Shown: positions 642-22,039 of the stretch, piece after piece
Layout: the number at the start of each line of letters is the position of its first letter
Position numbering within the stretch: position 1 is the stretch's first letter
Assembly: GCA_963792585.1 (NCBI GenBank)
Contig: CAWBWI010000006.1
Span: 640,001 to 704,000 of the forward strand
Source: Candidatus Eiseniibacteriota bacterium
GTDB taxonomy: Bacteria > Eisenbacteria > RBG-16-71-46 > CAIMUX01 > VGJL01
Direction: 5' to 3'
DNA: 64,000 nt
The notes under the pieces: model-generated
The model's database searches: none
What the model saw: the letters and a program-made list of their open reading frames with translations, nothing else
What the model was told of the DNA's origin: nothing
Position numbers and translations under genes: made by a program

Positions 642-659
642 CACCATGCCCTACGTCGC

Positions 660-790
660 GCCTAACAGCCGCATGCACCTGACGCGCTGGGCCGTCACGG
701 CCCTGGCAGAGAAGCATAGAGGGCAAAACCATCACCCCGGGCTGCCAGGGCCGCGCCAGCCTCAGCTCGCAGGTGATGCGAACGTTAGAC
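660..790 (+). repeat. attC subtype A (131 bp)
   Basis: GCCTAAC...GTTAGAC. Confidence 0.95.
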
Positions 791-794
791 TGAT

Positions 795-1193
795 ATGAAA
801 TGGCTTGAGCACCGGCGTACCAGGGTTCTCATCATCGTACTTTGCCTCGTCATAGTGGCAGGGAGCGTTGATGGCGGCTTCTATCTGTCGTCGAAGCACC
901 CGGCGTCGTCCCCATCATCCGCTTCGTTACTGCGGCTGATGGCTCAATCCGCCATCCATCCTGTCATTGGATTGGCACTACCGTTCATGGGCCTCGTGCG
1001 ACAGGGTGGACTCGGCGGCTTCCTTGGAATCCTGGCGGTCCTCACCACGGCTCTTGTGGTTCTCGCAGCCCGCCATTTTCTGATTCGGGGGACCTGGAGA
1101 GCGCTCGGCGGGGTTCTCACCGCTGGGCTCTTCTCGTATTGGTTGACCACGCGCTTGCTCTATGAGGTTTTCTATGGATCAGCCTGGTACTGA
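795..1193 (+). CDS. Membrane protein, unknown function (cassette)
   Basis: Several hydrophobic segments; ORF begins 4 nt after R'. Confidence 0.7.
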   Translation: MKWLEHRRTRVLIIVLCLVIVAGSVDGGFYLSSKHPASSPSSASLLRLMAQSAIHPVIGLALPFMGLVRQGGLGGFLGILAVLTTALVVLAARHFLIRGTWRALGGVLTAGLFSYWLTTRLLYEVFYGSAWY

Positions 1194-1355
1194 GGCTCTG
1201 GCCTTCCTCGCGGCTGTTCGCAAGCGTGCGGAGAGCGCAATGGCGCTCACGCCCTCGAGTACCCGGTTCATCCCAGAATCGCCCGTCCAGAATCGCATCC
1301 GGTCGTTCTCCGGCCGTGGAGTCGGCCAAATGATCCCGAACCTCTCGAGGCGCCA

Positions 1356-1486
1356 GTCTAACAGCCGCATTCACCTGACGCGCTGGGCCGTCACGGCCCC
1401 GGCAGAGAAGCATAGAAGGCAAGATCATCGCCCCGGGCTGCCAGGGCCGCGCCGGCCTCAGCCCGCAGGTGATGCGAACGTTAGGC
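1356..1486 (+). repeat. attC subtype A
   Basis: GTCTAAC...GTTAGGC. Confidence 0.95.
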
Positions 1487-1501
1487 TTCTTTGAGGACCT
1501 C

Positions 1502-2168: not shown

Positions 2169-2865
2169 CAGCCGCATTCACCTGACGCACTGGGCCGTCA
2201 CGGCCCTGGCAGAGACGCATAGAAGGCAAGACCATCACCCGGGACTGCCAGGGCCGCGCCGGCCACAGCCCGCAGGTGATGCGAACGTTAGGCATCATTT
2301 CGCACTCAATCTTGGCGTCATCCCGATCGCGCTATTCGTCGCTGCATGGTTGTCCGCATCAATCGTGACCGCCGAACCCGTTGATGAATGCGGGCGGTTC
2401 TTCACCTCCACGGGCTGCGTTGAGTTCTACCCCGTACGAGGCCAGGCGATGTACATCACGGATCTCGACAGTCTTCCTCCGGGTGGAACCGAGATACCCT
2501 TCAGACTACGAGGTGATCTCGTTCAGCTCGAGCGGATCTGCGATGGTTGGCTCTTCCACGAATGCATCATCAATGCGGCAGTGCTTCCTTGCGAGCCTGA
2601 GTCTCTCGGGTGTGGAGTTCTTTCGAGAGATAACGAGGATGCGTGCTCGTACTGGACGTCGGCCAAGTACGGCATGTTGGTGACTGCCCTCAATGGTTTC
2701 TCGCCTGGGGATACGGTTCTGGCCGTAGGCATACTGGATTACTCGCTCGGAACTTGGTGCATCGGGATTGGCTTCATCGACAATCCCGTATTCTCCGCTT
2801 GCCCCGACTCGCTTTCGCCTGTCGTTCGCACTACCTGGGGCACTCTCAAGGCGATCTTCAGGTAG
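2158..2865 (+). CDS. Cys-rich secreted protein, TTWG-tail family paralog 1 (start uncertain)
   Basis: Signal-like stretch from ~2293; LGCGVL, FSPGDTV, ACPDS, TTWGTLKAIFR; nearest in-frame ATG ahead of the signal stretch is 2158, before the attC. Confidence 0.75.
   Translation: MKPNSRIHLTHWAVTALAETHRRQDHHPGLPGPRRPQPAGDANVRHHFALNLGVIPIALFVAAWLSASIVTAEPVDECGRFFTSTGCVEFYPVRGQAMYITDLDSLPPGGTEIPFRLRGDLVQLERICDGWLFHECIINAAVLPCEPESLGCGVLSRDNEDACSYWTSAKYGMLVTALNGFSPGDTVLAVGILDYSLGTWCIGIGFIDNPVFSACPDSLSPVVRTTWGTLKAIFR
2163..2293 (+). repeat. attC subtype A
   Basis: GCCTAAC...GTTAGGC. Confidence 0.95.
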
Positions 2866-2875
2866 GAGGTCTGAT

Positions 2876-3006
2876 GCCTAACAGACGCGTTCACCTGCCG
2901 GGCGGCTCCGTCACGGCCCTGGCGAGGAAGCCGATGAAGATGAATCACCACCCGGTGCCGCCAGGTCCGCGCCGGACCTCGCCCGCAGGTGACGCGAACG
3001 TTAGAT
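2876..3006 (+). repeat. attC subtype B
   Basis: GCCTAAC..CGCGTTCACCTGCCGGGCGG...CAGGTGACGCGAAC GTTAGAT; compensatory changes versus subtype A. Confidence 0.95.
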
Positions 3007-3029
3007 GAACTTGAGGTGGAGGTAGCGCC

Positions 3030-3662: not shown

Positions 3663-3678
3663 GCAATATGTGGGAGTC

Positions 3679-3809
3679 ATCTAACTGCCGCGTTCACCTG
3701 CCGGGCGGGTCCGTCACGGCCCTGGCGAGGAAGCCTATGATGATAAATCACCACCTGGTGGCGCCAGGTCCGCGCCGGACCTCGCCCGCAGGTGACGCGA
3801 ACGTTAGAT
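3679..3809 (+). repeat. attC subtype B
   Basis: ATCTAAC...GTTAGAT. Confidence 0.95.
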
Positions 3810-3825
3810 GCCTTGGGGGTGCAGC

Positions 3826-4338
3826 ATGGGCGTAGCACCTGGCTTCATGGCAGCTTGCCTCTTGACTACCCTGCTGTATGGAGGAAGCAGTACTGCCCAC
3901 GCTGACCCCTTCGTCATTGGCGGAGTGCCAGTGTCCTATTCATTGGCCGATCTCAAGATTACCTTGTCATATGGCTTGTCCGACGAAGTAGTCCTCGACG
4001 GCTCCACTGGACAGGCCACGAGGACCGTCCGATCGTCGACGGACTCAACGCACGTGGTTACTCGCACTCTTGATGACAGGGAGGTTGTTGACCTTCTCAG
4101 TCGGTTCTACGAGATGCACTTCTTCGAATTCCCAGTGGAGTTCCATTCATTCTCTGGAATGGAGTTCAACCCCGATGGCCGATGGGTCAATACCGTCGCG
4201 GCTTGTACTGATCACTTCGCAACGCTTACTGTCCGCATAGGTTCATTCACGAAGGAAGTACGCATCCGCAAGACGTCTTCCCCACCAGTCCTTCTAGCAA
4301 TGGCCGATAGCCTCCGCACTCTTGCGAGGACGCGATGA
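3826..4338 (+). CDS. Secreted hypothetical protein (cassette; start 3808 or 3826)
   Basis: Signal peptide ending AHA; ORF fills the cassette. Confidence 0.75.
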   Translation: MGVAPGFMAACLLTTLLYGGSSTAHADPFVIGGVPVSYSLADLKITLSYGLSDEVVLDGSTGQATRTVRSSTDSTHVVTRTLDDREVVDLLSRFYEMHFFEFPVEFHSFSGMEFNPDGRWVNTVAACTDHFATLTVRIGSFTKEVRIRKTSSPPVLLAMADSLRTLARTR

Positions 4339-4348
4339 ACCACGAGGC

Positions 4349-4479
4349 ATCTAACTGCCGCATTCACCTGACGCGCTGGGTCGTCACGGCCCTGGCAGAG
4401 AAGCATAGCAGCTCGAACCATCACCCCGGGCTGCCAGGGCCGCGCCGGCCTCAGCCCGCAGGTGATGCGAACGTTAGAT
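4349..4479 (+). repeat. attC subtype A
   Basis: ATCTAAC...GTTAGAT. Confidence 0.95.
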
Positions 4480-4568
4480 GTGTGAGTTACTCAGCTCCGC
4501 CATTCCCTGACAGGGGGGCGCTGAAGTCAAGACAGGCAACGACAAACCAGAACCACCCTCAGAGAGGT

Positions 4569-4988
4569 TTGTCCAGCTTCCGCGCCCAATCCGCTCGGCG
4601 AGCAGGCTTTCTCACAGTGTTGCTTGCCTGCGCTAGTTTCGGTGGATGCGGCCTCAGGACCGTCTGCAAAGTCGGCACGGGAGCTCACGTCACGCAAGAA
4701 TGCCTTTCTTTGCGGATCAGGGCCGGGCAGGAAATCTGGGTCGATTCCACCTCGCGGGACCGGCAATCTGGGTATTACCTCGGCGTCCGAGACTTCGACG
4801 GTCAGCCAACCCTTGTCCTCGGACGCTATTCCCCGCTCCAGGCGTCCGGCTTCGACTCCAGCCGCATCCGAACGGACCACATACGACAGGTTCTGCGTCA
4901 TCGCGAGGCACCCTCCTACCTTGCCATCACCGCGATGGGAGGGATCGTCTTGGCGGGCGCGATCCTCATCGCCACTCAGGGGAGTTGA
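4569..4988 (+). CDS. Putative lipoprotein/membrane-anchored protein (start uncertain; frame open from ATG 4335)
   Basis: Lipobox-like FGGC and a C-terminal TM segment. Confidence 0.6.
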   Translation: MSSFRAQSARRAGFLTVLLACASFGGCGLRTVCKVGTGAHVTQECLSLRIRAGQEIWVDSTSRDRQSGYYLGVRDFDGQPTLVLGRYSPLQASGFDSSRIRTDHIRQVLRHREAPSYLAITAMGGIVLAGAILIATQGS

Positions 4989-5055
4989 GGCCCATGATGA
5001 TGCATTGGTCTACTCTGTTGTCTCTCTTCCATGAAGGGATCGAGCGTGCCTTCAC

Positions 5056-5186
5056 ATCTAACAGCCGCATTCACCTGACGCGCTGGGCCGTCACGGCCCT
5101 GGCAGAGAAGCATAGAAGCTCGGATCATCGCTTCGGGCTGCCAGGGCCGCGCCGGCCTCAGCTCGCAGGTGATGCGAACGTTAGGC
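5056..5186 (+). repeat. attC subtype A
   Basis: ATCTAAC...GTTAGGC. Confidence 0.95.
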
Positions 5187-5201
5187 ACGAAGGAGCCTCA
5201 G

Positions 5202-5780
5202 GTGAGAAGTAGCATCTTTCTTGGAGTGACCTGCTTGGCGGTCATCGCAGTAAGCGGACTAGCGGCGCCTTTCGATCGGTGTGGACAGATCAAGAGTACC
5301 CCGTATTGCGACCACTTCGCCCCGCTCTCTCCGACAGGTCCTTGGTACCGCATCGAGTTGCCATCGATGCCGGACACCTCGGCGCTCACCGTGTACCGTG
5401 TGATCGGCGAGACCATTCCTTCCGATGTGGAATGCAACCCTTCTTACAATGACTCGTGCATTGTCAATTGCAGCGTTTCCGTGTGTCCATCGGCGGATCT
5501 CGGATGCGGAGTACTTTCAAGAGTCTATGATCCCCGCATTGGGTACCTCTGCTTCATCTGGACATCGCCCGTCTACGGATCCCTCATAACACTCTCCAAC
5601 GGCTTCGTTCCTGGAGATACGGTCCACGTCGTAGGCATCGCTGACCGCAGAGGTGTAACTGGTCCATGTGACGTTGCCGAAGGGTACATATGGAACGAAG
5701 TGCTCACTGCTTGTTCAGACTCTGTTTCATCGACCGAGGAAACTACATGGGGAAGACTGAAGTTTCTCTTCCGGAGGTAA
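5202..5780 (+). CDS. Cys-rich secreted protein, TTWG-tail family paralog 3
   Basis: AAGGAG RBS + GTG; signal peptide; LGCGVL, FVPGDTV, ACSDS, TTWGRLKFLFRR. Confidence 0.85.
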   Translation: MRSSIFLGVTCLAVIAVSGLAAPFDRCGQIKSTPYCDHFAPLSPTGPWYRIELPSMPDTSALTVYRVIGETIPSDVECNPSYNDSCIVNCSVSVCPSADLGCGVLSRVYDPRIGYLCFIWTSPVYGSLITLSNGFVPGDTVHVVGIADRRGVTGPCDVAEGYIWNEVLTACSDSVSSTEETTWGRLKFLFRR

Positions 5781-5788
5781 TGGCAGGT

Positions 5789-5918
5789 GCGTAACAGCCG
5801 CGTTCACCTGCCGGGCGGATCCGTCACGGCCCTGGCGAGGAAGCAATGAAGATGAATCACCACCTGCTGCCGCCAGGACCGCGCCGGACCTCGCCCGCAG
5901 GTGACGCGAACGTTAGAA
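5789..5918 (+). repeat. attC subtype B (130 bp)
   Basis: GCGTAAC...GTTAGAA; one base shorter in the loop. Confidence 0.92.
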
Positions 5919-5942
5919 CGTCTTACCTGCACGGAGGAGCAA

Positions 5943-6896
5943 GTGTCCGTCGATAAATGCCCAGTCTGCCACATCGTGCTGGCCCAGCCCGTCTGCGAGC
6001 ACTTCGACAGGGACGCACGAACCTACCCATGCTCTAACTGCGGTGAGTTCACGCTCACACGGCCCTCGGAGATGTTTGTGGCAGAGCTTGGCCGCGACGC
6101 CCCAAGGAAGCTCCTGGTTCTTAGCCACGCCATACGCAAGATGGTAGTCAGGTCTACAAACCCGACTCTGCTTCCTGAACTGATTCGACAGATCGCCGAG
6201 AACACCGACCTACCCAACCCGGATGAGCAACTGACAAATCTGCTTCTCTGGCTTGGCCAGAACCTCGACCACCTCGGAGAGATGATCCAACTCCTACCGG
6301 AGGAGCATGCGGCGGTAATCGGCTCAGCAGGCGATGATAACTTCGTTGCCGTCTGTACCGAACTCAGTGATCGCGGTTGGTTCGTCGGCACAGCGACAAC
6401 CGGGCCAACATTCATAGGCTCTCTCTCCTTCGACGGTTGGCGGGTCTATCAGAAGCTGAGAAGAGGTCTCGCGGAGTCTCGCAAGGCGTTCATGGCGATG
6501 GCGTATGGCGATGGCGTGCTGGATGCTCTCTTCCGGGATTGCCTGAAACCGGCTGTAGCCAAGACAGGTTTTGACCTCCGAAGACTCGACGAAGATCTTC
6601 GGGCCGGGTTGATTGACGACCGGCTTCGCGTCGAGATCCTCACAAGTCGGTTTCTGATTGCGGACCTTACTAACGACAATCGTGGCGCCTACTGGGAAGC
6701 GGGTTATGCAGAGGGTTTGGGTAAGCCTGTCATCTACCTGTGTGAGCGGGCATATTTCGATGAGAGGAAGACTCATTTCGACACGAACCATCAGCACACG
6801 GTTCTCTGGAACTCCTCTCAGCCGACGGCTCTTGCCTCTTCACTGAAGGTAACGATTCGCGCGACCCTACCGGAGGAAGCCGTTCTTGAGGACTAG
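5943..6896 (+). CDS. Zn-ribbon + nucleoside 2-deoxyribosyltransferase/TIR-like domain protein
   Basis: CPVC...CSNC; AFMAM...IADLT..N.GAYWEAGYAEGLGKPVIY. Confidence 0.8.
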   Translation: MSVDKCPVCHIVLAQPVCEHFDRDARTYPCSNCGEFTLTRPSEMFVAELGRDAPRKLLVLSHAIRKMVVRSTNPTLLPELIRQIAENTDLPNPDEQLTNLLLWLGQNLDHLGEMIQLLPEEHAAVIGSAGDDNFVAVCTELSDRGWFVGTATTGPTFIGSLSFDGWRVYQKLRRGLAESRKAFMAMAYGDGVLDALFRDCLKPAVAKTGFDLRRLDEDLRAGLIDDRLRVEILTSRFLIADLTNDNRGAYWEAGYAEGLGKPVIYLCERAYFDERKTHFDTNHQHTVLWNSSQPTALASSLKVTIRATLPEEAVLED

Positions 6897-6912
6897 CCAT
6901 GGTTGCTGCGCT

Positions 6913-7043
6913 TTCTAACTGCTGGATTCCCCTGACGCGCTGGGCCGTCACGGCCCCGGCAGAGAAGCATAGAAAGCTAGACCATCACCCGGGGCTGCCA
7001 GGGCCGCGCCGGCCTCAGCTCGCAGGTGATGCGAACGTTATGG
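6913..7043 (+). repeat. attC subtype A
   Basis: TTCTAAC...GTTATGG. Confidence 0.95.
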
Positions 7044-7058
7044 GCATGTGATGCGCTC

Positions 7059-7087
7059 TTGCATCATAACTACACTGTAGGTACAAT
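7059..7087 (+). promoter_or_regulatory. Sigma70-like promoter of the TA cassette with internal palindrome
   Basis: TTGCAT-17 bp-TACAAT; CTACAcTGTAG 7070-7080; ATG 6 nt after the -10 (leaderless). Confidence 0.7.
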
Positions 7088-7093: not shown

Positions 7094-7387
7094 ATGGTAG
7101 ATCTTCGCTTTGAGTGGGATAGCCAGAAGGCCGTAGCCAATCTGCGCAAGCATGCCATTTCCTTCGAGGAGGCCGTCAGTGTCTTCTCGGATGAACATGC
7201 ATTGCTACTTACCGACCCCGATCACTCCGAAGCCGAAGACAGGTTCATTCTCCTTGGCCTCAGTGCGGACCTTCGAGCCCTCGTCGTCTGCCACTGCTAC
7301 CGCCAGGAGGAGGTCATTCGCATATTCTCTGCTCGGCGCGCAACCAAGAAGGAGCGGGAGCAGTACAACAGAAGGTGGATGCAATGA
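7094..7387 (+). CDS. brnT: BrnT family toxin
   Basis: FEWDSQKAVANLRKHAISFEEA...EDRF...IRIFSARRATKKE. Confidence 0.9.
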   Translation: MVDLRFEWDSQKAVANLRKHAISFEEAVSVFSDEHALLLTDPDHSEAEDRFILLGLSADLRALVVCHCYRQEEVIRIFSARRATKKEREQYNRRWMQ

Positions 7388-7602
7388 GGAAGGAATACGA
7401 CTTCACCAAGGCCAAGCGCAATCCCTATGCAGCACGCCTCAAGCGGCAGGTGACGATCAGGCTCGACGGCGGCACGATCAAGTATTTCAAGGATCTCGCC
7501 GAGGAAACAGGAATCCCTTACCAGACCCTGATCAACCTCTACCTGAGGGAGTGCGCTGCTAATCGCAAGAAGCTCTCCCTAAGCTGGATGGGCACAGCCT
7601 AG
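7384..7602 (+). CDS. brnA: BrnA/CopG-like antitoxin
   Basis: MRKEYDF...VTIRLD...GIPYQTLINLYL; ATGA overlap with the toxin. Confidence 0.85.
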   Translation: MRKEYDFTKAKRNPYAARLKRQVTIRLDGGTIKYFKDLAEETGIPYQTLINLYLRECAANRKKLSLSWMGTA

Positions 7603-7610
7603 TCCATGGC

Positions 7611-7741
7611 CCATAACTGCCGCATTCACCTGACGCGCTGGGCCATCACGGCCCTGGCAGAGAAGCATAGAAGGCAAAACCATCACCTCGGGCTGCCAGG
7701 GCCGCGCCAGCCTGTGCCCGCAGGTGATGCGAACGTTGGGC
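7611..7741 (+). repeat. attC subtype A
   Basis: CCATAAC...GTTGGGC. Confidence 0.95.
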
Positions 7742-7929
7742 GGACCGAAGCACCATCGAATTTCACGGCGCCGCCCGGTGGCCCCGGCCTGCGTGTGAGC
7801 CAGGCCGGCCGGGGCAAGCGGCGCCGCGAGGTCAGCCGTGAGGAGCGATCGCCCACTCGCTGGTGGTTTGCCACGAGGGATCGAGGTCGGGACGAATGAC
7901 CCAGGCGGCCGACCGCCAGATCGACGACT

Positions 7930-8854: not shown

Positions 8855-8941
8855 GCCCAACAAGGCGTTGCAGCAGACGGGCTTGTCGGTCGCGCTGCGC
8901 GTTCCCTCTGGCGCCCGCTGCTGATCGCCGGTACGTCGGGC
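8855..8941 (+). repeat. attC, short type (R' mutated to GTCGGGC)
   Basis: GCCCAAC..TTGCAGCAG...CTGCTGA. Confidence 0.8.
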
Positions 8942-9040
8942 AGACCGTACCGTCGCGCGCCTCCGGTTGGGGCTTATCACCAGCTCGCGGCGGGTATGCA
9001 ATCTTCGGTTACCATCACCCCACAGGGAGGACAAGCTCCG

Positions 9041-9502
9041 ATGACTAAAGTGACACCGTTCCTGATGTTCAACGACCAGCTCGAAGCGGCCATGGAGTTC
9101 TACACCGCCACGTTCCCGGACTCCGAGATCAGGAATGTCGCCCGCACCGGTAAGGACGGCCCCATCACCTCCGCCGAGTTTGTCGTCGGCGGTCAGTTTT
9201 TCATGGGCTACAACGGGGGCCCGTACTTCACCTTCTCCGAAGGCCTCTCGCTCTACGTAGACTGCGAGGACCAGAACGAGGTCGACGAGTATTGGGACAA
9301 GCTCGTCAGGGCCGGCGCGAAGCCTACGCAGTGCGGTTGGATCAAGGACCCGTTCGGCCTCTCCTGGCAGATCGTCCCGAGGCGATTCATCGCGCTCATC
9401 CGCGACAAAGACCCCAGGAGGGTCAAGGCCGTGATGGAAGCTATGATGACGATGGTGAAGCTCGACGTGGCGGCGCTTGAGCGAGCGTACAATGAGGCGT
9501 AG
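9041..9502 (+). CDS. VOC/PhnB-like (3-demethylubiquinone-9 methyltransferase-like) protein
   Basis: KVTPFLMF...CGWIKDPFGLSWQIVP; GGAGG RBS. Confidence 0.9.
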   Translation: MTKVTPFLMFNDQLEAAMEFYTATFPDSEIRNVARTGKDGPITSAEFVVGGQFFMGYNGGPYFTFSEGLSLYVDCEDQNEVDEYWDKLVRAGAKPTQCGWIKDPFGLSWQIVPRRFIALIRDKDPRRVKAVMEAMMTMVKLDVAALERAYNEA

Positions 9503-11669: not shown

Positions 11670-12231
<562 letters not shown>

Positions 12232-13474: not shown

Positions 13475-13544
13475 GGCCGCGAGGTGTTGTTGGGCGCCCG
13501 GGCGTGTCGCGGTCCGCGTGGCTCCAGCGCGGCGGGCGGCAGAG

Positions 13545-13640
13545 GCCGAACCAGGCGCTGCAGCAGCCGGCGGGGCATGATCGGTTTCTGGAAGTTCATG
13601 GCTGAGCGTGCCTCGCCGCTGCTGAGATGGGTATTCAGGC
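13545..13640 (+). repeat. attC with degenerate R'
   Basis: GCCGAAC matches GTTCGGC; CTGCAGCAGC/GCTGCTGAG arms. Confidence 0.7.
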
Positions 13641-13681
13641 GGTAGAGAACTCAATTCACAACCGTGGGGGGATATTTCACA

Positions 13682-14428
13682 ATGGACATTCCAAGGATCT
13701 TCAACATCACCGAAAGTGCTCATCGCATCCACAACCCGTTCACACCCGAAAAACTCGCTACTCTCGGCGCGGCGTTGCGCCTGGAACCGGGGACCCGTGT
13801 CCTCGACCTCGGCAGCGGCTCGGGCGAGATGCTGTGCACCTGGGCACGCGATTACGGAATCCTTGGCACTGGTATCGACATGAGCCAATTGTTCTCCGAT
13901 CAAGCGAAGCGCCGCGCTGAAGAACTCGGTGTTGCCGGCCAAGTCGAGTTCATCCACGGCGACGCTGCCGGCTACGTAGCCGCCGAAAAGGTCGGTGTGG
14001 CAGCCTGTCTCGGCGCCACGTGGATCGGCGGGGGAGTCGTCGGCACCATCGAACTTCTGGCGAAAAGCCTCCGCACGGGAGGGATCATCCTCATCGGCGA
14101 GCCCTATTGGTCGCAGTTACCGCCGACAGAAGACGTTGCCAAGGGTTGCCATGCCGGTTCGATAGCCGACTTTCTCATGCTTCCAGAACTGCTCGCGTCT
14201 TTCGGCAGACTCGACTACGACGTCGTGGAAATGGTTCTGGCAGACCAAGAGGGCTGGGACAGGTACGAGGCAGCCAAGTGGCTCACCATGCGGCGATGGC
14301 TCGAAGCCAATCCCGACGACGAGTTAGCCAAAGATGTTCGAGCCGAACTGACCTCGGAACCCGTGCGCTACGCCACGTACACGCGTGAATACTTGGGCTG
14401 GGGGGTGTTCGCGCTGATGGCGCGGTGA
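13682..14428 (+). CDS. Class I SAM methyltransferase (YjhP-like)
   Basis: MDIPRIFNITES; VLDLGSGSGE. Confidence 0.9.
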   Translation: MDIPRIFNITESAHRIHNPFTPEKLATLGAALRLEPGTRVLDLGSGSGEMLCTWARDYGILGTGIDMSQLFSDQAKRRAEELGVAGQVEFIHGDAAGYVAAEKVGVAACLGATWIGGGVVGTIELLAKSLRTGGIILIGEPYWSQLPPTEDVAKGCHAGSIADFLMLPELLASFGRLDYDVVEMVLADQEGWDRYEAAKWLTMRRWLEANPDDELAKDVRAELTSEPVRYATYTREYLGWGVFALMAR

Positions 14429-14473
14429 TGAAGAGATTGCCCTACGACTCGGAAAGTGGTGAAAACCAATCAT

Positions 14474-14573
14474 GCCTAACAGACCGATGGAGCAGAAGGA
14501 TCGGCCTTGTCACTTCGCTGGCAGGAGCCAGCGCCGCGCCAAGACCGCGCGCTGCTCAACGCTGACGTTGGGC
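14474..14573 (+). repeat. attC (100 bp)
   Basis: GCCTAAC...GTTGGGC. Confidence 0.8.
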
Positions 14574-14603
14574 CGTTTCCATGACGAAGAGGCCTCCACA
14601 TCT

Positions 14604-15013
14604 GTGACAAGGGCAGATCTTGCTGTGTCAGCGGCGGCAACAATCGCTTGGGCTGCGAGACCCACAACATCTTTCGCGTACGATTACTACCCACTTGCGG
14701 TTGGCTGCCACTGGGGCTACGACAACGCGAGCGGCGGTCTCCACACCATTTCGATCACCGGCGAGCGAATCGTCCTCGGTGCGGTTACCAGGGTGAGACA
14801 CCAACTCGAGGGCGACCAGGAGTACGAGAACTACTGGACGAAGGACACCGCTGGCAACCTATTCATACATGGTGCCTACGATTACGATGGATTCGAGATC
14901 TCCTACCTGCCGCCAATCGCGATGGTTATGGCCCCTCTCTATGTAACGAAGACGTGGGTAACAGAGAACATCTGCCTTTACGACCTCGATGGAACGCCGT
15001 GGGGTGGTGACCC
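14604..15013 (+). pseudogene. Secreted protein, 3'-truncated and fused into the next attC
   Basis: Signal peptide, DYYPLAVG..W.Y; reads directly into the attC frame (IHLTRW), stop at 15143. Confidence 0.65.
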
Positions 15014-15132
15014 CATTCACCTGACGCGCTGGGCCGTCACGGTCCTGGCAGAGAAGCATAGCCAACAAAACCATCACCCGGGGCTGCCAGGCCCGCGCCG
15101 GCCTCAGGACGCAGGTGATGCGAACGTTCGGC
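15014..15132 (+). repeat. attC subtype A lacking R''
   Basis: Begins at CATTCACCTGACG, ends GTTCGGC. Confidence 0.85.
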
Positions 15133-15147
15133 GAAAGGTGTAGAGCG

Positions 15148-16092
15148 ATGACGCAGTCCGAGGACATTGCTGAGCGGTTCTGGAGTCTTCCGCAGAAGCC
15201 TGATGAGGAATCGCGGCGAGAGCAGCTCTTTCTGGACGACGTGATTCAGAAGGCGCATCTCGATCGGGAAATCGCATCCCGCCTTGCGGGGGTGGAGACG
15301 GCCCTCGACGTGGGGGCTGGGACGGGGCGGTTCTCCATACCGTTGGCGGCACGCGGCATTGCGGTCACGCATCTCGATATTGCCGGGGGCATGATCGAGA
15401 GAGCCCGCCACGAGGCTAGGCAAGCCGGAGTTCTGGGGCGGCTGACCTTCCGGCAGGGACGGTTCTCCGACCTCGAGGAATATGCTGCTCGGGAATTCGA
15501 CCTCGTCATATGCTCGGATGCCCCCGTGTCTTATGCCTACCCGGACCATGCCGCAGCCATCACGGCCCTGGCGCGTGTTTGCGGCAAGGCGATCGTTCTC
15601 AGTGTTTCCAGCAGGCTGGGATATATGTCGCTGTGCCTGAATCCTCTGCAGAAGGAGCCGTACTTCGCGGATCCCGAAGACGAGGACCCGCTTGTCCGCT
15701 TCTACCTCCACAACGGGCGCGCCCAGCTTGCTTCCTGGGAGCCACCGATTGACACCGCGTGGAACGCCTTCAGGACGGGCCTCCTTTCGGACCCCCAGGA
15801 GACGGATCGTGACTATCGGGCTGGACACGCCCCGTGGCCACACAACTATCTGTTCCAGCCAGCAGAGTTGGAGGGGTTGCTGCGGTCGAATCACGTGGCC
15901 GACATCAAACTCGCGGGTCCGGGCGCGCTATCGCGAGGGCTTCCGAATGTCGTCCTTCGGAAGCTCCTGTTGACAGATGAGCACCGTCAGCGCTTCCTGG
16001 ACTTGTGCTACGAGTTCGATTCCCAGCCCTCGGTTTGTGGCCTCGGGAAGGACAATCTTGTAGCGTCGGGACGCGCGTCCGCCGAGTGGTAG
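15148..16092 (+). CDS. Class I SAM methyltransferase
   Basis: ALDVGAGTGRFS; FDLVIC. Confidence 0.88.
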   Translation: MTQSEDIAERFWSLPQKPDEESRREQLFLDDVIQKAHLDREIASRLAGVETALDVGAGTGRFSIPLAARGIAVTHLDIAGGMIERARHEARQAGVLGRLTFRQGRFSDLEEYAAREFDLVICSDAPVSYAYPDHAAAITALARVCGKAIVLSVSSRLGYMSLCLNPLQKEPYFADPEDEDPLVRFYLHNGRAQLASWEPPIDTAWNAFRTGLLSDPQETDRDYRAGHAPWPHNYLFQPAELEGLLRSNHVADIKLAGPGALSRGLPNVVLRKLLLTDEHRQRFLDLCYEFDSQPSVCGLGKDNLVASGRASAEW

Positions 16093-16097
16093 CAACC

Positions 16098-16196
16098 GCC
16101 GGACAAGCGGCCGAAACCGTCCTGCGGCGCCGGGCGAGCCCAGTCCGTCGGAGGATCGAATCTGGCGCCGCCCGCGGGTTAGCCGCAGCATTATGC
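16098..16196 (+). repeat. Degenerate attC
   Basis: GCCGGAC (expected GCCGAAC)...ATTATGC (expected GTTATGC). Confidence 0.65.
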
Positions 16197-16217
16197 GTCT
16201 ATAGGAAGGAGAGTGTC

Positions 16218-16634
16218 TTGATTGAAGCCCTCATTGGTGTCGCGGTAGGTGGTCTCACGATCGGGTTGGCACGGATCATTCGTGGGCAGCGTTGGTTGTA
16301 TTCATTAGGTCTGCTCACTCTGCCCAGCTTGTACGCATTCTTTGCTCTACAAGCCGGTGAGCAGGCTGTGGGCGTCAAAGAAATGATCTACGGGGTTCCG
16401 TTTGTCGTAGTTGGGCTGGTTTTCGCATTTGTGAGCGTCCGTCGGTCAGCGGTAGTGGTCGGTGCATTCTGGATACTTCACGGGCTGTACGACTTGACGC
16501 ATAGTCAGTTCATTACAAACGCTGGTGTTCCTGGTTGGTATCCCGTCTTCTGTTTCTCGGTTGATGTTGTTATCGGTGCATATCTACTATGGCTGTCGCG
16601 TCGTATCTCCAACGCGAATCTTCGCCAGGCGTAA
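16218..16634 (+). CDS. Membrane protein (DUF6010-like)
   Basis: AGGAG + TTG; HGLYDLTH...VPGWYPVFC..VD. Confidence 0.75.
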   Translation: MIEALIGVAVGGLTIGLARIIRGQRWLYSLGLLTLPSLYAFFALQAGEQAVGVKEMIYGVPFVVVGLVFAFVSVRRSAVVVGAFWILHGLYDLTHSQFITNAGVPGWYPVFCFSVDVVIGAYLLWLSRRISNANLRQA

Positions 16635-16692
16635 GTCGTGGCTTTGCCATTCTCGGAAGGCGGTAGGATCTGTTCAGGTTATTGAAGACGAC

Positions 16693-16764
16693 GCATAGCC
16701 CTTCCGTCAACCGGACAGTCGGCAAGCTGCTCATTTTGACCTCCGGTCATGTCATACGCCATGC
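16693..16764 (+). repeat. Degenerate attC
   Basis: GCATAGC...GCCATGC; flanks complementary to the partner sites. Confidence 0.55.
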
Positions 16765-16788
16765 TCACTGTGCTACGGCGGTGATGAC

Positions 16789-17325
16789 ATGAATGACATG
16801 ATGCGCGCGCGCGGTCACCTGGTTGGATGGCTAGTCTACACAAAGGCCGGTCGTGTCCTGCTCCTCTTGAGCGTCCTTATCCCCGTCACCATCCGAGTTT
16901 ATCGATACCTGAATCACGACCGTTGGGTGGTGGATCCGACCACATATGCCCCACCATCTCCATCTGAATCCACCTCGTACGGAGCACCGCAACCGGGACG
17001 CCATGACGCAACGGCGCGTTCTCAGGTTACTTTGCCTTCCACCGGTATTGGTGGAAACTATCTTTCCGCGGCGGGTGACGGATCTGACCCCTTTGTCGCT
17101 GTAGACAAGGACGCATTGGGTGAGCTCACCAAGGCCGCAAGTCGCAAGGACTACTACGGCGTAGCCGACCTTCTTGCGTCTGGCCGTGTCTTCACCGTCA
17201 AGGACGGTCAAACTGGTCCCCGTGTCCTGGACCATGGATTTGTGAAGACGCGTGTTCGAATACTTAATGGCGCAAATGCTGGCCGGTCAGGCTGGGTGCC
17301 TTCCGAATGGGTCCACGACCGATGA
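16789..17325 (+). CDS. Single-TM hypothetical protein with SH3-like C-terminus
   Basis: TM helix; RVRILNG...GWVPSEWV. Confidence 0.7.
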   Translation: MNDMMRARGHLVGWLVYTKAGRVLLLLSVLIPVTIRVYRYLNHDRWVVDPTTYAPPSPSESTSYGAPQPGRHDATARSQVTLPSTGIGGNYLSAAGDGSDPFVAVDKDALGELTKAASRKDYYGVADLLASGRVFTVKDGQTGPRVLDHGFVKTRVRILNGANAGRSGWVPSEWVHDR

Positions 17326-17332
17326 ACTCGGA

Positions 17333-17463
17333 GCATGACCGCCGCGTTCGCCTGCCGGGTGGGTCCGTCACGGCCCTGGCAGAGAAGGATAGAAGGCTAA
17401 ACCATCACCCTGGGCTGCCAGGGCCGCGCCGGCCCCAGCTCGCAGGTGATGCGAACGTTAGGC
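17333..17463 (+). repeat. attC, chimeric (B left arm, A loop and right arm)
   Basis: GCATGAC..CGTTCGCCTGCCGGG...GGCAGAGAAG...GTTAGGC. Confidence 0.88.
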
Positions 17464-17491
17464 CGACAACCAAAGTTGTGGGAGGATAATC

Positions 17492-18130
17492 ATGAGCAAG
17501 GTATTCGTGAACATCGGACTTAGCCTTGACGGCTACATGGCACCGGAAGGGATGACCATTGAGAATTGGGAGAAGCCTGAGTACAAGAACTGGGGCGCCA
17601 AGTGGGGTGCGCTGATGGGCTGGATCATTAATCAGCAGTACTTCCGCGAGAACCTCAAGCTCGGACCAGGGGGAGAGACCGGTCCGGTCAATGACATGGT
17701 TCGTAACACCACGGAGCGCATCGGCGCCAACATCATGGGCAAGCGAATGTTCGAGCAAGGCGAGGTCTCATGGCCCGAGGAGGCTCCGTTTCACACTCCA
17801 GTATACGTTCTTACCCACGAGAAGCGCGAACCTTGGGTCCGGCCGGGCGGGACGACATTCTACTTCGTCAACGACGGCCCGGAGAGCGCCCTTGAGCAGG
17901 CTCGGGAGTCTGCGGGCGGTCGCGATATTCGCATCGCGGGCGGCGCGGACGTGATCCAGCAGTACTTGAACCTGGGTGTCATCGATGAGCTGGAAATCGC
18001 CTTGGCGCCGGTGCTGTTCGGCGGTGGGAGACGTCTCTTCGAGAACCTACGCGAGCCGGCGCCGAGGTTTCGAATTGACAAGGTGCTTGATAGTCCAGCT
18101 GCAACACACTTGCGCTATGTGCGTGAGTAA
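17492..18130 (+). CDS. Dihydrofolate reductase/RibD family protein
   Basis: IGLSLDGYMA...MGKRMF...IAGGA...DELEIALAPVLFGGG. Confidence 0.9.
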   Translation: MSKVFVNIGLSLDGYMAPEGMTIENWEKPEYKNWGAKWGALMGWIINQQYFRENLKLGPGGETGPVNDMVRNTTERIGANIMGKRMFEQGEVSWPEEAPFHTPVYVLTHEKREPWVRPGGTTFYFVNDGPESALEQARESAGGRDIRIAGGADVIQQYLNLGVIDELEIALAPVLFGGGRRLFENLREPAPRFRIDKVLDSPAATHLRYVRE

Positions 18131-18134
18131 GGCG

Positions 18135-18198
18135 GCCTAACAACCGGTTGCAGCGGACGGTCTGCGGCACGGCCCGCCGCTGAACCGGAGCGTTAGGA
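18135..18198 (+). repeat. attC, short type (64 bp)
   Basis: GCCTAACAACCGGTTGCAGCGG...CCGCTGAACCGGAGCGTTAGGA. Confidence 0.9.
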
Positions 18199-18644
18199 GG
18201 CACGACACCCTGAGTAGCAATTTGCTCGAGGACGTTTGAAGGGCCAATCCTGTTGGCCCTCGCTCTTGCGGAAGGGTCGAATGCCATCCATCCAGCCGAA
18301 CCGTTGACTACGCTGAATCCACTGCGGCCGGATGGTGCTCCTCCCCCTCCAACGAAGAACCTGCTCTTTGACCCCGACTCAGACGCCTCCAAGCCCTTGT
18401 GGCCCAAGCGAATCCACTTCAAACGAAGCCCACTTTCAATTTGGTCGTGCCTGGACTCGGTGGTAGGCTTGATGCGCACAGCGGATGCGGAAGATTGAAA
18501 CGACGGGGAATCGCTGGTGCAGGAATCCGGGGGCCGCGCGATGAGCAAGGTGCCCACTATCTCTTCCTCGACCTCATCCTCTCCCTCCACGAGTGGATCC
18601 ACACCCTCGTACTTGCCAATCAAGAAGGGCGTTCAAGGCGTTCC

Positions 18645-18672
18645 TCCTAACAGCCGCATTCACCTGCGGGCG
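18645..18672 (+). repeat. attC subtype A remnant (left arm only)
   Basis: TCCTAACAGCCGCATTCACCTG; TCCTAAC pairs with GTTAGGA 18192. Confidence 0.75.
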
Positions 18673-18684
18673 GGGTTGAGTGGC

Positions 18685-19137
18685 ATGAAAGCGGGGTGTC
18701 CTTTGAGATTGTTGCTCCTCTACTGCCTCTGTGCCATCGCATTTCCCGGCTTATCGCATGCTCTGCCACTGGATCTCCACGTCTTCCCCGACGATCCTAG
18801 ATGGGGCGACCCAGTGGTAGTCCTTCTCGTCGGAGGCCTCGACCCAAGCTGTTCTCGAGTCGACTCCGTGTTCTGTAGCCAAACTGCTGCGTACCGTCTC
18901 GACATGAACGTCCTGATCGTCAGGACCCAAGAGCGATGCCTCGCCATCTGGGAGGCGTTCGCGGAAAACTGCGTGTTCAATCACCTTCCATTCGGCGATT
19001 ACACCATCGTTGCAAGGGTCTTCTACGATGACCTGTCTGAACCGCCCGCCCTTGTGGATTCGGTGGCGTTTTCAGTGAAGCTACCAACCGCCACGCACGC
19101 GTCGAGCTGGGGTCACGTTCGGGGACTGTTCCGATGA
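18685..19137 (+). CDS. Secreted Ig-like protein with SSWGHVRGLFR tail
   Basis: Signal peptide ending SHA; WG tail. Confidence 0.8.
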   Translation: MKAGCPLRLLLLYCLCAIAFPGLSHALPLDLHVFPDDPRWGDPVVVLLVGGLDPSCSRVDSVFCSQTAAYRLDMNVLIVRTQERCLAIWEAFAENCVFNHLPFGDYTIVARVFYDDLSEPPALVDSVAFSVKLPTATHASSWGHVRGLFR

Positions 19138-19150
19138 CACAGTGGCGAGT

Positions 19151-19281
19151 GCATAACAGCCGCTTTCATCTGACGCGCTGGCCCGTCACGGCCCGGGCAG
19201 AGAAGCACAGAAGGCAAGACCATCTCCCGGGGCCGCCACAGCCGCGCCGGCCTCAGCTCGCAGGTGATGCGAACGTTGGTC
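19151..19281 (+). repeat. attC subtype A (diverged)
   Basis: GCATAAC...GTTGGTC. Confidence 0.9.
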
Positions 19282-19291
19282 GGGGTGTGCG

Positions 19292-22039
19292 ATGAAACTG
19301 CTGACCTGGAGCTTCGCGATCGGGATCATTCTCGCCGGAGTCGCTCTACCGTGCCTTCCGTGCGTTGCCGTCTCAGAGTGCGTGGACTACCGCGACTACG
19401 AGTGTGCCACCCGCGTCCTGAGCCAAGCATACTGGGTCGAAACCGAGGCGGTACTCGACATTGATATCTCCGGGAACTACGCATATTTGGCAGCGGCCGA
19501 CGGGGAGTTCCTGGTTGTCGATGCAACGGACCCCGTGCATGTCCAGGTCGCGAGCCGAATCAGCACCCCGGGTTCTGCCGTTGCTCTGGCTTTGTCACAG
19601 ACCTACGCGTATGTCGCGACACTTCCGACGGGTCTGCAGGTGGTCGACATCTCCGACCCGGCCCATCCGCGAATCGTCGACAGCGTGGCTACACCCAATT
19701 CAGTCAGTGACGTGATGGTCTTCGGCTCCCACGCGTACCTGGCGGAAGAGTCCTCCGGTCTCAGGATCCTTGACCTGTCCGATCCCGCCCACCCAGTCGA
19801 GATCCCCCAAGGTATTGCGGGTCGGGTGTCTCACCTTGGACTGTCTGACGGAGTTCTCATTTTGACGAACCCGTCGTACGGACTCAGCTTCTTCGATCTC
19901 TCCACCCCGGACAGTCCGAGCCCGCTGTCGACGCTGGCTCTGCCTCACGCATCCCACGTGGCGGTTCTCGGTCTCCATGCGTTCGTGTCATGCGGGACCA
20001 CGGTCACTTCCGTCGACATCGCCGATCCCGCAAACCCCCAGGTTATCGGGAGTGTCACGGTGCCGTCCGTTGCCGGGCGCATCGTGACATTGGAACCCCA
20101 TGCGTTTGTGACCACATCGCAGACCAGCGTGCAAGTCCTGGACGTTTCGGATCCGACGGCTCTGAGAATCGAGCTCTCGTTGGGTCCATCTGAGGGAAAC
20201 AAGGCCATCGCGATTGATGGGGACCGTGTGTGTATTGGCGGCATTTTCGGCTCCTTCACGGTCATCGAGATCGCGAGCTTGGAAACGCCGGCTGTCGCGA
20301 GCGTACAGCTTCCCGAGTGGGCAAGAGTTGTCGCAACCCGTGCGAACTACGCATATGTCGGTTGCGACTTCCGAGGCATCCAGGTCGTGGACTTGACAGA
20401 TCCCCGGAATGCGCAGATCACAGATCAGTTCAGCACCGGCCCCGGCCATGTCGCGATGGCCGCATCCGGGTCTTTCATATATGACCTCAGCACGGACTTT
20501 GGTCTAACGATCCTGGATGTCGGAGATCCCGCCCACCCGGTCCAAGCGTCGGGCTGGGGTGACCTCCGGGACCTCCAGGATCTCGACGCTTCTGGGGGTT
20601 TCGCCTGCTACACGTACACCCATGGACTCGCGGCCCTGGACGTAAGCGATCCGTACCACCCCCGGGGCCTTGGAGAAGTCGAAATCTCGACGGGTGCCCG
20701 CAAGGTGGCAGTGACCGGGACGCACGCTTTCGTCACGGACGGCAGCCGTCGGATCACAACCGTGGATCTGCAGGGCCAGGCGGGTCCTGCCATCGCAGGA
20801 ACCTTCGATATTGAGGCTGGAGGCGTCACGGGGATCGCGGCCTCGGGTTCCTACCTCTACACCGTGGGCGGTCTGGATTTCTGGGCAGTCGATGTAGTGG
20901 ATCCTGCCAACCCTCTACCTATTGGGCATCTCGTCCTTCCAAGCAACGGAGGTGACCTCGTCGTTGATTCCGGTTACGCGCACATCCTTGGCGCCAAGGG
21001 TCTCTTTGTGGTCGATGTGAGGGACCCGGGGCATCCACAGCTGGCGGGGAACGTCTGCTCACCGGGATCACCTCAGAACCTCGCAGTCATGGCGACTCAT
21101 ACGGTTGTCGCCAGTCTGGACTCCGGTCTCCAGGTCCTCCACCGCCATTGTGGGAACCCTTCTGCGCCTGCTCCCTTCACCCTCACCTACCCGGCAGACC
21201 TCGAAAGCCTGACCGTACGGGATCCAACTTTGAGCTGGCGGGCCGCGCAACCGACGTTCCCAGGAGCGACCGTCGAATACGTTGTCATCTGGTCAGAGTC
21301 CCCGACCTTCACCCCCGCAGATTCCGCCTTCGCCGGGCGCGACACGACGTTCACGTTTGGGCCATCGGCCCTCGATCAGACCCGGACCTATTACTGGAAG
21401 GTCCGAGCGTCGAGTACCTCCGGGCGGAGTCGGTGGTCCGATCCAGGCGGGGGGCGCTCGTTCCACACCGGAGTCTTGACACCCGTCGTACTCGCGGCGA
21501 GCGTGCACTCGACCCAGGAGGGAATCCTCCTGACCTGGGACTTGTTGGCCGACCCGCAGATGGTCGCCGTTGCCGTCCTTCGCCGTGACCCACAACATCC
21601 GGAGTGGCTTCCGCTCTTCGTGGACCCTCCCGGCGGAGAGGCGGTGGGCCAATATCTTGATCGCAACGTCGAACCATGGGTTTCGTACGAATACCTCGTG
21701 GAGGTCCGGGACGACCTCGGCATCGTGACCCAAGTTGGTCCGATCGCCGCCCAACGCACTTCCGTGGAACTGGATCTTGCGGTATACCCATCCCCTGGTC
21801 GGGGCGCCGTGAACGTTGCCTTGAACCTGCCGTCACCGGGTGACGCTGTGCTGCGTCTGTTCGACGCGTCCGGACGCGAGGTCGCGCACAGAGATTTCCG
21901 GGGACTCCGGGCGGGCACGCACACCGTTGTTTGGACACCGGACGACGATCGCACCGATCACGTGCCATCGGGATCGTACTGGCTTTGCCTCTACACGGAG
22001 AGCGGGCGGCGGTGCGTCCCCTGGTCGCTGGTTCGGTGA
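19292..22039 (+). CDS. Secreted LVIVD-repeat protein with FN3-like and FlgD-Ig/T9SS-like C-terminal domain
   Basis: Many YAYVA....GLQVVDISDP repeats; YYWKVRA; VYPSPGRG...FDASGREV...SGSYW. Confidence 0.88.
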   Translation: MKLLTWSFAIGIILAGVALPCLPCVAVSECVDYRDYECATRVLSQAYWVETEAVLDIDISGNYAYLAAADGEFLVVDATDPVHVQVASRISTPGSAVALALSQTYAYVATLPTGLQVVDISDPAHPRIVDSVATPNSVSDVMVFGSHAYLAEESSGLRILDLSDPAHPVEIPQGIAGRVSHLGLSDGVLILTNPSYGLSFFDLSTPDSPSPLSTLALPHASHVAVLGLHAFVSCGTTVTSVDIADPANPQVIGSVTVPSVAGRIVTLEPHAFVTTSQTSVQVLDVSDPTALRIELSLGPSEGNKAIAIDGDRVCIGGIFGSFTVIEIASLETPAVASVQLPEWARVVATRANYAYVGCDFRGIQVVDLTDPRNAQITDQFSTGPGHVAMAASGSFIYDLSTDFGLTILDVGDPAHPVQASGWGDLRDLQDLDASGGFACYTYTHGLAALDVSDPYHPRGLGEVEISTGARKVAVTGTHAFVTDGSRRITTVDLQGQAGPAIAGTFDIEAGGVTGIAASGSYLYTVGGLDFWAVDVVDPANPLPIGHLVLPSNGGDLVVDSGYAHILGAKGLFVVDVRDPGHPQLAGNVCSPGSPQNLAVMATHTVVASLDSGLQVLHRHCGNPSAPAPFTLTYPADLESLTVRDPTLSWRAAQPTFPGATVEYVVIWSESPTFTPADSAFAGRDTTFTFGPSALDQTRTYYWKVRASSTSGRSRWSDPGGGRSFHTGVLTPVVLAASVHSTQEGILLTWDLLADPQMVAVAVLRRDPQHPEWLPLFVDPPGGEAVGQYLDRNVEPWVSYEYLVEVRDDLGIVTQVGPIAAQRTSVELDLAVYPSPGRGAVNVALNLPSPGDAVLRLFDASGREVAHRDFRGLRAGTHTVVWTPDDDRTDHVPSGSYWLCLYTESGRRCVPWSLVR

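Follow-up and report, generated by a model that had tools for sequence, protein, structure and literature searches.

In-phase start codons at the long attC sites of an Eisenbacteria integron suggest a ribosome relay between gene cassettes

Introduction

Integron cassettes are usually viewed as self-contained genes, and large sedentary arrays as silent storage past the first promoter-proximal cassettes. A 64,000-nucleotide (nt) stretch of an uncultured bacterium, Candidatus Eiseniibacteriota bacterium (assembly GCA_963792585.1, contig CAWBWI010000006.1, here C6, positions 640001–704000; hereafter ‘the window’) raises the question of how ribosomes might travel along such an array in whatever order its cassettes stand. 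The cassettes are separated by long attC recombination sites, and an initial annotation, made from the sequence alone, proposed that these sites double as translated bridge open reading frames (ORFs) that couple each cassette to the next. The underlying observation is real and stronger than first described. One codon phase is kept at both ends of the cassettes and at attI. In 10 of 39 cases the cargo gene continues the preceding bridge as an in-frame fusion, and the peptide encoded by attC is unconstrained. Native cassettes thus appear to share a single frame at the recombination point, in which a start codon lies at the end of one cassette, the long attC is open, and the next cassette ends or continues the frame. 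The arrangement suggests a selected, order-independent ribosome relay across the attC hairpins, to which we assign a probability of about 0.7.

Results

The integron and its long attC sites

The window is part of a sedentary integron whose integrase gene and attI lie 19–21 kilobases (kb) upstream of it. The integrase gene (C6 619016–620026, same strand as the cassettes) scores 432 bits against TIGR02249, for which the cut-off is 265. The array head, 19 kb before the window, carries an attI-like site with its GTT at C6 620978, followed by the first cassette; by position and motif this is a candidate attI. A profile built on 13 window copies identified 58 long attC copies in the genome: 42 in direct order in a single C6 array, 15 on contig C1 in three clusters, and one on contig C3. 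A profile scan of the window returned 16 attC sites, none of them on the minus strand. Coordinates below are window positions unless prefixed C6, C1 or C3.

The long sites pair R with L boxes, and their bottom-strand folds are attC-like, with bulged bases and z-scores of −6.3 to −7.1, and on the messenger RNA (mRNA) strand the same sites form hairpins of −65 to −70 kcal/mol. Genes for RNase III and Rho are present in the genome. Duplicated cassettes behind different neighbours, and other cassette orders in related assemblies, would fit shuffling by the integrase. Rfam has no match in window positions 1–32000, and the attC search found no match among viral contigs; records named Candidatus Eisenbacteria carry the same attC family. 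In C6 array cassettes shorter than 1.5 kb, the two ends carry perfect inverted repeats, mostly of 9 nt and up to 12, that extend beyond the 7-nt core; the mean complementarity of cassette ends is 8.5 nt, compared with 4.9 nt for mismatched pairs.

A start codon in fixed phase at cassette 3′ ends

Frame 0 is here the reading frame that treats both the AAC of R″ and the GTT of R′ as codons. To score cassette 3′ ends we took the 58 copies and removed three 124-nt sites, two copies lacking the left arm, two degenerate distal copies, five paralogous duplicates, four copies without a clear upstream gene and one inverted toxin–antitoxin cassette; seven ends at which the gene stop lies inside R″ were scored apart. 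At the remaining 34 distinct cassette ends, an ATG that is open between the upstream stop and AAC occurs in frames 0, 1 and 2 at 28, 3 and 0 ends (P ~3e-12, frame permutation). With GTG admitted the counts become 33, 4 and 4 (P ~5e-14, frame permutation). Six of the seven ends scored apart have an ATG within 40 nt in frame 0 and none has one in frame 1, and a test independent of gene calls gives 32, 3 and 1 of 48. Neither the R″ consensus nor the terminal inverted repeat produces this excess as an artefact, because it persists once the 6 or 12 nt adjoining R″ are removed (25/3/0 and 21/2/0 of 35, the inverted cassette dropped later being still included).

All 12 ATG codons listed by the initial annotation (646, 1330, 2158, 2874, 3668, 4335, 4994, 6899, 7606, 10156, 17322 and 19134) are where it placed them, in frame with the AAC of R″, and their frame is open across the 120 nt from AAC to GTT. 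In 30 of 34 cases no more than 17 nt separate the upstream stop from the bridge start, long spacers included (a set containing one row later dropped). At the long spacers of C6 632784 and C6 635717, successive mini-ORFs make the crossing in two steps.

Some cassette genes have a C-terminal tail in common with chromosomal genes. The tail [TS]WGx[LIVM][KR]xx[FY][RHK] occurs on 103 ORFs of the genome, 14 of them in cassettes; tail-bearing genes in the window end at 638, 2862, 3659, 5777 and 19134. It looks like a lineage-specific sorting signal, and the array would therefore stock host-type exported proteins. An ATG follows within 20 nt in 8 of 10 cassette genes with this tail versus 17 of 77 chromosomal ones (P = 5e-4).

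The attC copies are close kin, and a common C-terminal tail on 14 cassette genes could likewise point to one ancestral cassette end that was copied, so that the counts are not independent. Unless a hidden homology connects the spacers, such a founder effect, or chance, is hardly credible as the source of the phase rule: paralogues were collapsed, the spacers differ in length and sequence, and they stand behind unrelated genes (BrnA, TIR, DUF2806 and beta-barrel proteins). The rule also holds in the three separate clusters on C1, where ATG falls in frames 0, 1 and 2 at 8, 0 and 0 of 10 ends.

Overlap or fusion at cassette 5′ ends

The 5′ set comprises 39 junctions. From the 58 copies and attI we excluded five duplicates, five copies before cassettes without a clear plus-strand gene, one without a following plus-strand gene, two degenerate copies, five whose R′ is destroyed, the single copy on C3 and the inverted cassette. 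Cargo starts were assigned by a fixed rule, namely the best Shine–Dalgarno (SD)-like motif or, failing that, the first ATG. One row, at C1 1880197, may, to judge by its resemblance to such genes, belong to an insertion sequence rather than be cargo.

The 39 junctions comprise 14 exact ATGA or GTGA overlaps, 10 in-frame fusions, 11 bridge stops at −13 to +11 nt from the cargo start, and 4 uncoupled cases. Coupling is seen at 35 of 39 junctions in frame 0, compared with 11 and 22 in the shifted frames, where the frame-2 control ignores the core TAG (P ~2e-6). If only fusions and exact overlaps are counted, 24 junctions are coupled versus 7 and 18 (P = 0.005). This tight coupling is found in 13 of 16 cargoes without an SD-like motif and in 11 of 23 with one (P = 0.049).

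In the window, ATGA overlaps are confirmed upstream at 4335, 17322 and 19134 and downstream at 795, 10407 and 19292, the ORF at 19134–19295 being coupled in this way at both ends. The short gaps noted between bridge stop and next start (139/150, 1494/1502, 15143/15148 and 17489/17492) are likewise present. The proposal that bridges end at the next start holds for these overlaps and gaps; it fails at 2158 and 4335, where the frame runs directly into the next gene to give proteins of 235 and 217 amino acids (aa). The bridges at 2874, 6899 and 7606 are not coupled to a downstream start. About a quarter of the junctions are therefore direct fusions rather than sites of re-initiation, which qualifies the idea of a relay by coupling.

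The fusions had escaped the initial annotation. All 10 fused cargoes begin with a hydrophobic segment, judged by a hydropathy score rather than a signal-peptide predictor, and fusion occurs at 10 of 29 junctions with a hydrophobic cargo N-terminus versus none of 10 without one (P = 0.04). Tight coupling follows the same division, with 23 of 29 hydrophobic-N-terminus cargoes (exported and native-looking) and 1 of 10 others. Most cassettes carry their own start codon, as expected of a canonical cassette; 3 of the 39 cargoes are free of ATG over their first 115 nt, and an SD-led start is absent from 7 of the 10 fused cargoes. One cargo with neither is present three times, in frame behind three different cassettes. 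Some cassettes would thus depend on a neighbour for their start codon. Fusion is likely to be tolerated, since the fused cargoes are predicted exported or membrane proteins, and wherever the signal can be cleaved the extension would be lost to signal peptidase.

The attC interior and its peptide

Frame 0 is open in 45 of 46 full-length copies with 120 nt from AAC to GTT, the exception being a degenerate copy at 27657, and the length is a multiple of three in 46 of 48 distinct copies. The initial annotation had noted the stop-free frame; taken alone this is weak evidence, because the copies are close relatives with almost the same sequence, and 40 of 46 also lack stops in one reverse-strand frame. 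Simulation on a star tree predicts 7.1 copies closed in frame 0, compared with the one observed (P ~0.002, overstated by relatedness), and 8.5 closed in the reverse frame, where 6 are seen. The allele count shows no corresponding deficit, so that stop avoidance is borne out by the one measure and not by the other; purging of stops inside attC is suggested but not settled.

The peptide sequence itself is not under selection, because synonymous changes show no excess (56 seen, 58.4 expected). Changes in type A sites are spread evenly over the codon positions (62/57/62). The peptide's occurrence as a predicted protein in many assemblies (58 matches) and a sequence partly common to types A and B would fit a functional small protein or targeting tag, a reading that we consider very improbable: besides the even substitution pattern, Pfam has no match for the peptide, and its conservation follows the stem. 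The ORF at 19134 has no near-length homologue, and further searches returned only attC-derived ORFs.

In the family consensus the stem is flanked by AAC codons in the same frame, a geometry that might allow attC to be skipped, either by excision of the hairpin from the RNA or by ribosome hopping between the two codons, with loss of a 40-residue insert. Joining across the site would yield signal peptides of normal length, and the length constraint modulo three is as such a mechanism requires. We regard skipping as very unlikely, if slightly less so than a role for the peptide: no stop codon forces a bypass, an open frame would be needless if the site were skipped, and the fusion gcuF1–OXA-28 shows that a long N-terminal extension is exported after cleavage, according to the part of PMC3375312 covered here.

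Features inside the sites bear on frame 0 in two further ways. The loops of all 10 type B copies contain an ATG that follows a GAGGA motif and matches the exit frame. No stop interrupts the exit frame in the three 124-nt sites, which belong to cassettes that are paralogues without a known gene (C6 622323–622797, 623402–623877 and 637232–637706), and an ORF traverses each cassette with its attC and leaves in the next GTT frame. These cassettes may be pure translated spacers.

One 130-bp copy (5789) had been cited as a site lacking both the in-frame start and the open frame. It does not serve as a clean negative control: an in-frame GTG at 5787 follows GGAGG, and its loop ATG is in the exit frame. 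A faulty assembly or a recent deletion probably accounts for the missing base, because a near-identical public contig is one base longer over 5531–5900, the extra base being placed only to within that interval.

The attI site and other genomes

A short ORF crosses the recombination point at attI as well as at 33 of 34 attC junctions. At attI it is a frame-0 ORF with ATG codons at C6 620846 and 620867 (SD weak), whose stop overlaps the start of the first cargo as ATGA. The TAG within the GTTAG core, the stop used by ORF-11-type reading frames, is not used; the bridge reads GTT as a codon and passes the TAG. In genome G004, of another genus and with an integrase 72% identical, a stop-free stretch of 98 codons in frame 0, containing three ATGs, precedes the matching site, although the leader sequence differs. 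At a third candidate attI the frame-0 ORF is short, and frame 1 stays open for longer. In both genomes intI lies on the same strand as the cassettes (C6 619016–620978 and G004:C33 106649–108808), and a small gene pair resembling a toxin–antitoxin module, a different one in each as read by eye, separates intI from attI. The 20 integrase loci of the order that we examined supplied 15 attC sites and two attI candidates.

Other assemblies also contain predicted proteins of this build, in which the attC peptide stands between a short start and either a brief tail or a fused cargo. Among 49 parsable matches from outside this genome, 38 have at most 25 residues before the peptide and 14 have a tail of more than 60 residues; since gene callers need a start, such proteins show existence and not rate. 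A homologue of the start-less cargo (P0004) is fused through a short and different attC-like peptide, as read by eye. Three cassette ends of related organisms on public contigs, the ends being chosen without regard to ATG, have the ATG in frame (hand-read, short pieces). The 110 matches in the genome collection are mostly chance matches in high-GC (guanine–cytosine) genomes.

A fixed phase is not a general property of attC. We considered this possibility and rejected it, as 94 distinct sites from other genomes and metagenomes show little bias (ATG 20/16/13 in frames 0, 1 and 2, P = 0.15) and have lengths in all classes modulo three; the strict rule is therefore lineage-restricted. With GTG included the same sites give 44/30/26 (P = 0.005), a result that comes partly from one 121-nt family and leaves room, perhaps, for a weak general tendency beyond the lineage. 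Other genomes of the same phylum contribute 29 sites with ATG at 5/3/6, and the short sites of the present array give 2/0/1 of 11. In the 121-nt family (metagenome contigs L021, L026, L037, L045–L047, L064, L065 and L074) frame 0 is open, the R′ TAG being its usual stop, and starts fall in frames 0, 1 and 2 at 8/1/3 of 10 ends. It is possible, from these sequences, that this family represents a second lineage with a similar, ORF-11-like relay.

Discussion

A model for translation along the array

In the model that we favour, a ribosome that finishes a cargo gene would re-initiate at the nearby bridge start and melt the mRNA stem of about −70 kcal/mol while translating some 45–85 throw-away codons. 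It would then re-initiate at the overlapping ATG or continue into the next cargo. The relay would likely keep ribosomes moving over each hairpin in any cassette order, and their cover would protect the stem against RNase III and the transcript against Rho, if these act here. Selection would operate on the host, through gained expression of distal cassettes. The claim of order independence is supported by the statistics on both sides of the site, by the same attI frame in two genera and by one cargo that stands in frame behind three cassettes. The relay is less a property of attC than the initial annotation had it, residing mainly in the cassette ends, with the start in the 3′ spacer and the stop or fusion in the 5′ leader. 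The attC itself would seem to need only an open frame and a constant length modulo three.

Several observations weigh against a selected relay. The −13 to +11 nt window was set after the data were seen, and narrower windows retain 32, 28 and 24 of 39 junctions; junctions without a downstream plus-strand gene are not among the 39. Four of the 39 are uncoupled, one of which precedes a BrnT–BrnA pair with its own promoter-like sequence, and 23 of the 39 cargoes may not need a relay because they have their own SD-like motif. Within attC the number of nonsense alleles shows no deficit (4 seen, 3.2 expected), which leaves the evidence for stop purging mixed. Elsewhere, related long attC sites for the most part do not follow the rule (ATG 11/8/7 of 43), so that long hairpins do not require it. 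In class 1 integrons, deletion of attC altered downstream expression in a minority of 10 cassettes (PMC11511950), and fusion through attC reduced export of OXA-28 (PMC3375312), according to the parts of these sources covered. Selection on the 3′ start would also be indirect, because the benefit goes to the neighbouring cassette; a fit of 33 in 34 is surprisingly tight for selection of this kind.

The main rival, which we think improbable though far less so than any other alternative, holds that the phase was locked when the cassettes were made and that the flanking ORFs are relics rather than a selected relay. Cassettes might have been cut from tight operons, or a circular copy of a gene might have received attC directly behind its start codon, always in one codon phase; the relics would then be the beginning of the following donor gene or of the gene in the cassette itself. 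A near-perfect rule (33/34) is what such an origin would leave, and the terminal inverted repeats that exceed the core would reflect a specific construction step. The confinement of tight coupling to exported, native-looking cargoes points the same way, and the 3′ start and 5′ end of the start-less cargoes' own cassettes would form an ordinary signal peptide if attC were absent (by eye). However, no donor was found in the genome for six 3′ and five 5′ flank peptides (among the matches listed, E 0.036 or worse), and chromosomal genes with the same tail are rarely followed by ATG (17/77). Cassette genesis does not make attI, yet attI has the same phase in two genera, and the type B loop ATGs and two-step chains are left unexplained. 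The 94 sites elsewhere show little bias. Even if genesis were the origin, start-less cargoes would still need the bridge today.

A related proposal, which we hold to be less likely than not, is that the unit of shuffling is a fixed-phase module, comparable to phase-matched exons, made of the body of one gene and the start of the next. If so, recombination assembles genes across attC, the upstream neighbour sets the expression of each exported protein, and the fixed codon phase is a footprint of cassette making.

Comparison with known systems

The ingredients are known from class 1 integrons. In listings of the open-access literature we found no description of an array-wide fixed phase or of start-less cassettes, and no paper on Eisenbacteria integrons. 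The comparisons that follow are drawn from the parts covered of the sources cited. ORF-11, ORF-17 and ORF-18 have been described at attI1 (PMC8876359). As here, a short ORF lies over the recombination point, its peptide sequence is of little consequence, and it drives translation of a cassette without an initiation region. These ORFs are known only at attI, act on the first cassette and usually end at the TAG of GTTAG, whereas the present ones use the GTT codon frame, run past the TAG and occur at attI and nearly every long attC; in this read-through they are closer to ORF-18 than to ORF-11.

A short ORF in attC is reported to relieve the hairpin block (Jacquier 2009, as cited in PMC8876359), and translation over the stem was proposed to raise the next cassette by termination and re-initiation. 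By the summary in PMC8876359, that work concerns individual sites, in contrast to the array-wide phase, the starts in upstream 3′ spacers and the direct fusions described here. The closest parallel to the fusions is gcuF1–blaOXA-28, where the upstream cassette's start is used, the frame passes through attC and an internal signal peptide is cleaved on export (PMC3375312). It is a single case, which lowers expression of a gene with its own start, whereas 10 of 39 cargoes are fused here and three are start-less. Cassette translation has also been linked to downstream mRNA level: in class 1 cassettes an untranslated 3′ stretch cut downstream expression fourfold, and reading on to attC gained twofold (PMC11511950). 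Those tests were engineered, on cassettes in which most stops overlap attC, and no natural bridge appears in the parts of that source covered. Mutations that may improve coupling to a distal cassette have been seen (10.1101/2020.08.07.237602).

One frame at all junctions suggests that a long array could be translated from end to end in any order; some of its cassettes would in that case lack a complete gene and take their start codon from a neighbour. Any set of integrons can be scored for a simple, countable signature, the codon phase at the crossover. The phase is also relevant to cassette origin, as either selection or a creation step must place an in-phase start at 33 of 34 ends. In annotation, the bridge frame accounts for the small ‘hypothetical proteins’ called at these attC sites and for odd N-terminal extensions.

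Features of the window

The bridge ORFs, fusions and attC sites of the window are listed in Table 1.

Table 1. Bridge ORFs, fusion ORFs and attC sites of the window (window positions)
Feature	Position	Strand	Remarks
Long attC, type A, cut by window edge, with end of bridge ORF	1–139	+	stop 137–139; next ATG 150 has its own SD-like motif
Bridge ORF, 50 aa, across attC 660–790	646–798	+	stop overlaps ATG 795 (ATGA), which lacks an SD-like motif; hairpin folded
Bridge ORF across attC 1356–1486	1240–1494	+	in-frame ATGs 1240 and 1330 span last 120 nt of 169-nt 3′ spacer; stop 7 nt before ATG 1502
Fusion ORF, 235 aa	2158–2865	+	ATG inside end of upstream gene, then attC 2163–2293, then start-less cargo
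Cargo of fusion ORF 2158–2865	2287–2865	+	N-terminus signal-peptide-like; TWG-type tail
Bridge ORF, 44 aa, across type B attC 2876–3006	2874–3008	+	after GGAGG; same-frame loop ATGs 2934 and 2940; uncoupled, next ATG 3030 has its own strong SD
Bridge ORF, 55 aa, across type B attC 3679–3809	3668–3835	+	stop 7 nt past likely start 3826
Fusion ORF, 217 aa	4335–4988	+	ATGA overlap with upstream stop, then attC 4349–4479, then cargo
Cargo of fusion ORF 4335–4988	4473–4988	+	no own ATG; lipoprotein-like signal
Bridge ORF, 72 aa, across attC 5056–5186	4994–5212	+	start 8 nt after upstream stop; stop 8 nt after GTG 5202
130-bp type B attC 5789–5918	5787–5956	+	in-frame GTG 5787 after GGAGG; one loop base missing; loop ATG 5846 still in exit frame, stop 5954–5956
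Bridge ORF, 50 aa, across attC 6913–7043	6899–7051	+	uncoupled
BrnT–BrnA pair cassette after bridge 6899	7094–7602		promoter-like TTGCAT-17-TACAAT at 7059–7087 (by eye)
Bridge ORF, 97 aa, across attC 7611–7741	7606–7899	+	no plus-strand gene close downstream
Bridge ORF, 84 aa, across type B attC 10176–10306 and 107-nt open leader	10156–10410	+	ATGA overlap with hydrolase gene 10407
Long attC without left end	15011–15143	+	upstream ORF reads through in exit frame; stop 4 nt before ATG 15148
Bridge ORF, 55 aa, across attC 17333–17463	17322–17489	+	ATGA overlap upstream; stop 2 nt before ATG 17492
Bridge ORF, 53 aa, across attC 19151–19281	19134–19295	+	ATGA-coupled at both ends
Seven shorter attC sites (8855, 9620, 11580, 12264, 12836, 14474, 18135)	8855–18198	+	cassettes probably imported
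Degenerate distal long attC	22838–22967	+	one base short
Degenerate distal long attC	27653–27783	+	stop closes frame; no upstream start

Other observations

A start-less gene was considered at C6 632784–633608 and rejected, since the minus strand there encodes a PIN-domain protein; neither curated set includes the segment. The inverted cassette there (C6 632904–633608, the PIN-domain gene and a likely antitoxin, both minus) is open in plus-strand frame 0 for 214 codons, so that the reading frame continues even across it.

Clusters of attC away from the integrase lie at C1 267242–269192, 1880197–1881473 and 1934735–1941734, with the single C3 site at 1030027. At many of these off-array sites the right arm is destroyed and the in-frame start is still present. 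Two of the clusters are near genes that resemble serine recombinases (by eye).

The cassette gene at 1502–2168 contains a stop near 1731; a related public contig has one base fewer at 1729, and the break may therefore be an assembly error. The cassette at 18192–18680 is of the same type as C6 627960–628417, the longest ORF of these copies being on the minus strand; only the left arm of a long attC remains at its end (~18647–18670), and it is therefore fused to the next cassette. At 55010–56322 and 63523–63934 there are repeat units of 41–46 nt, probably inside repeat-protein genes.

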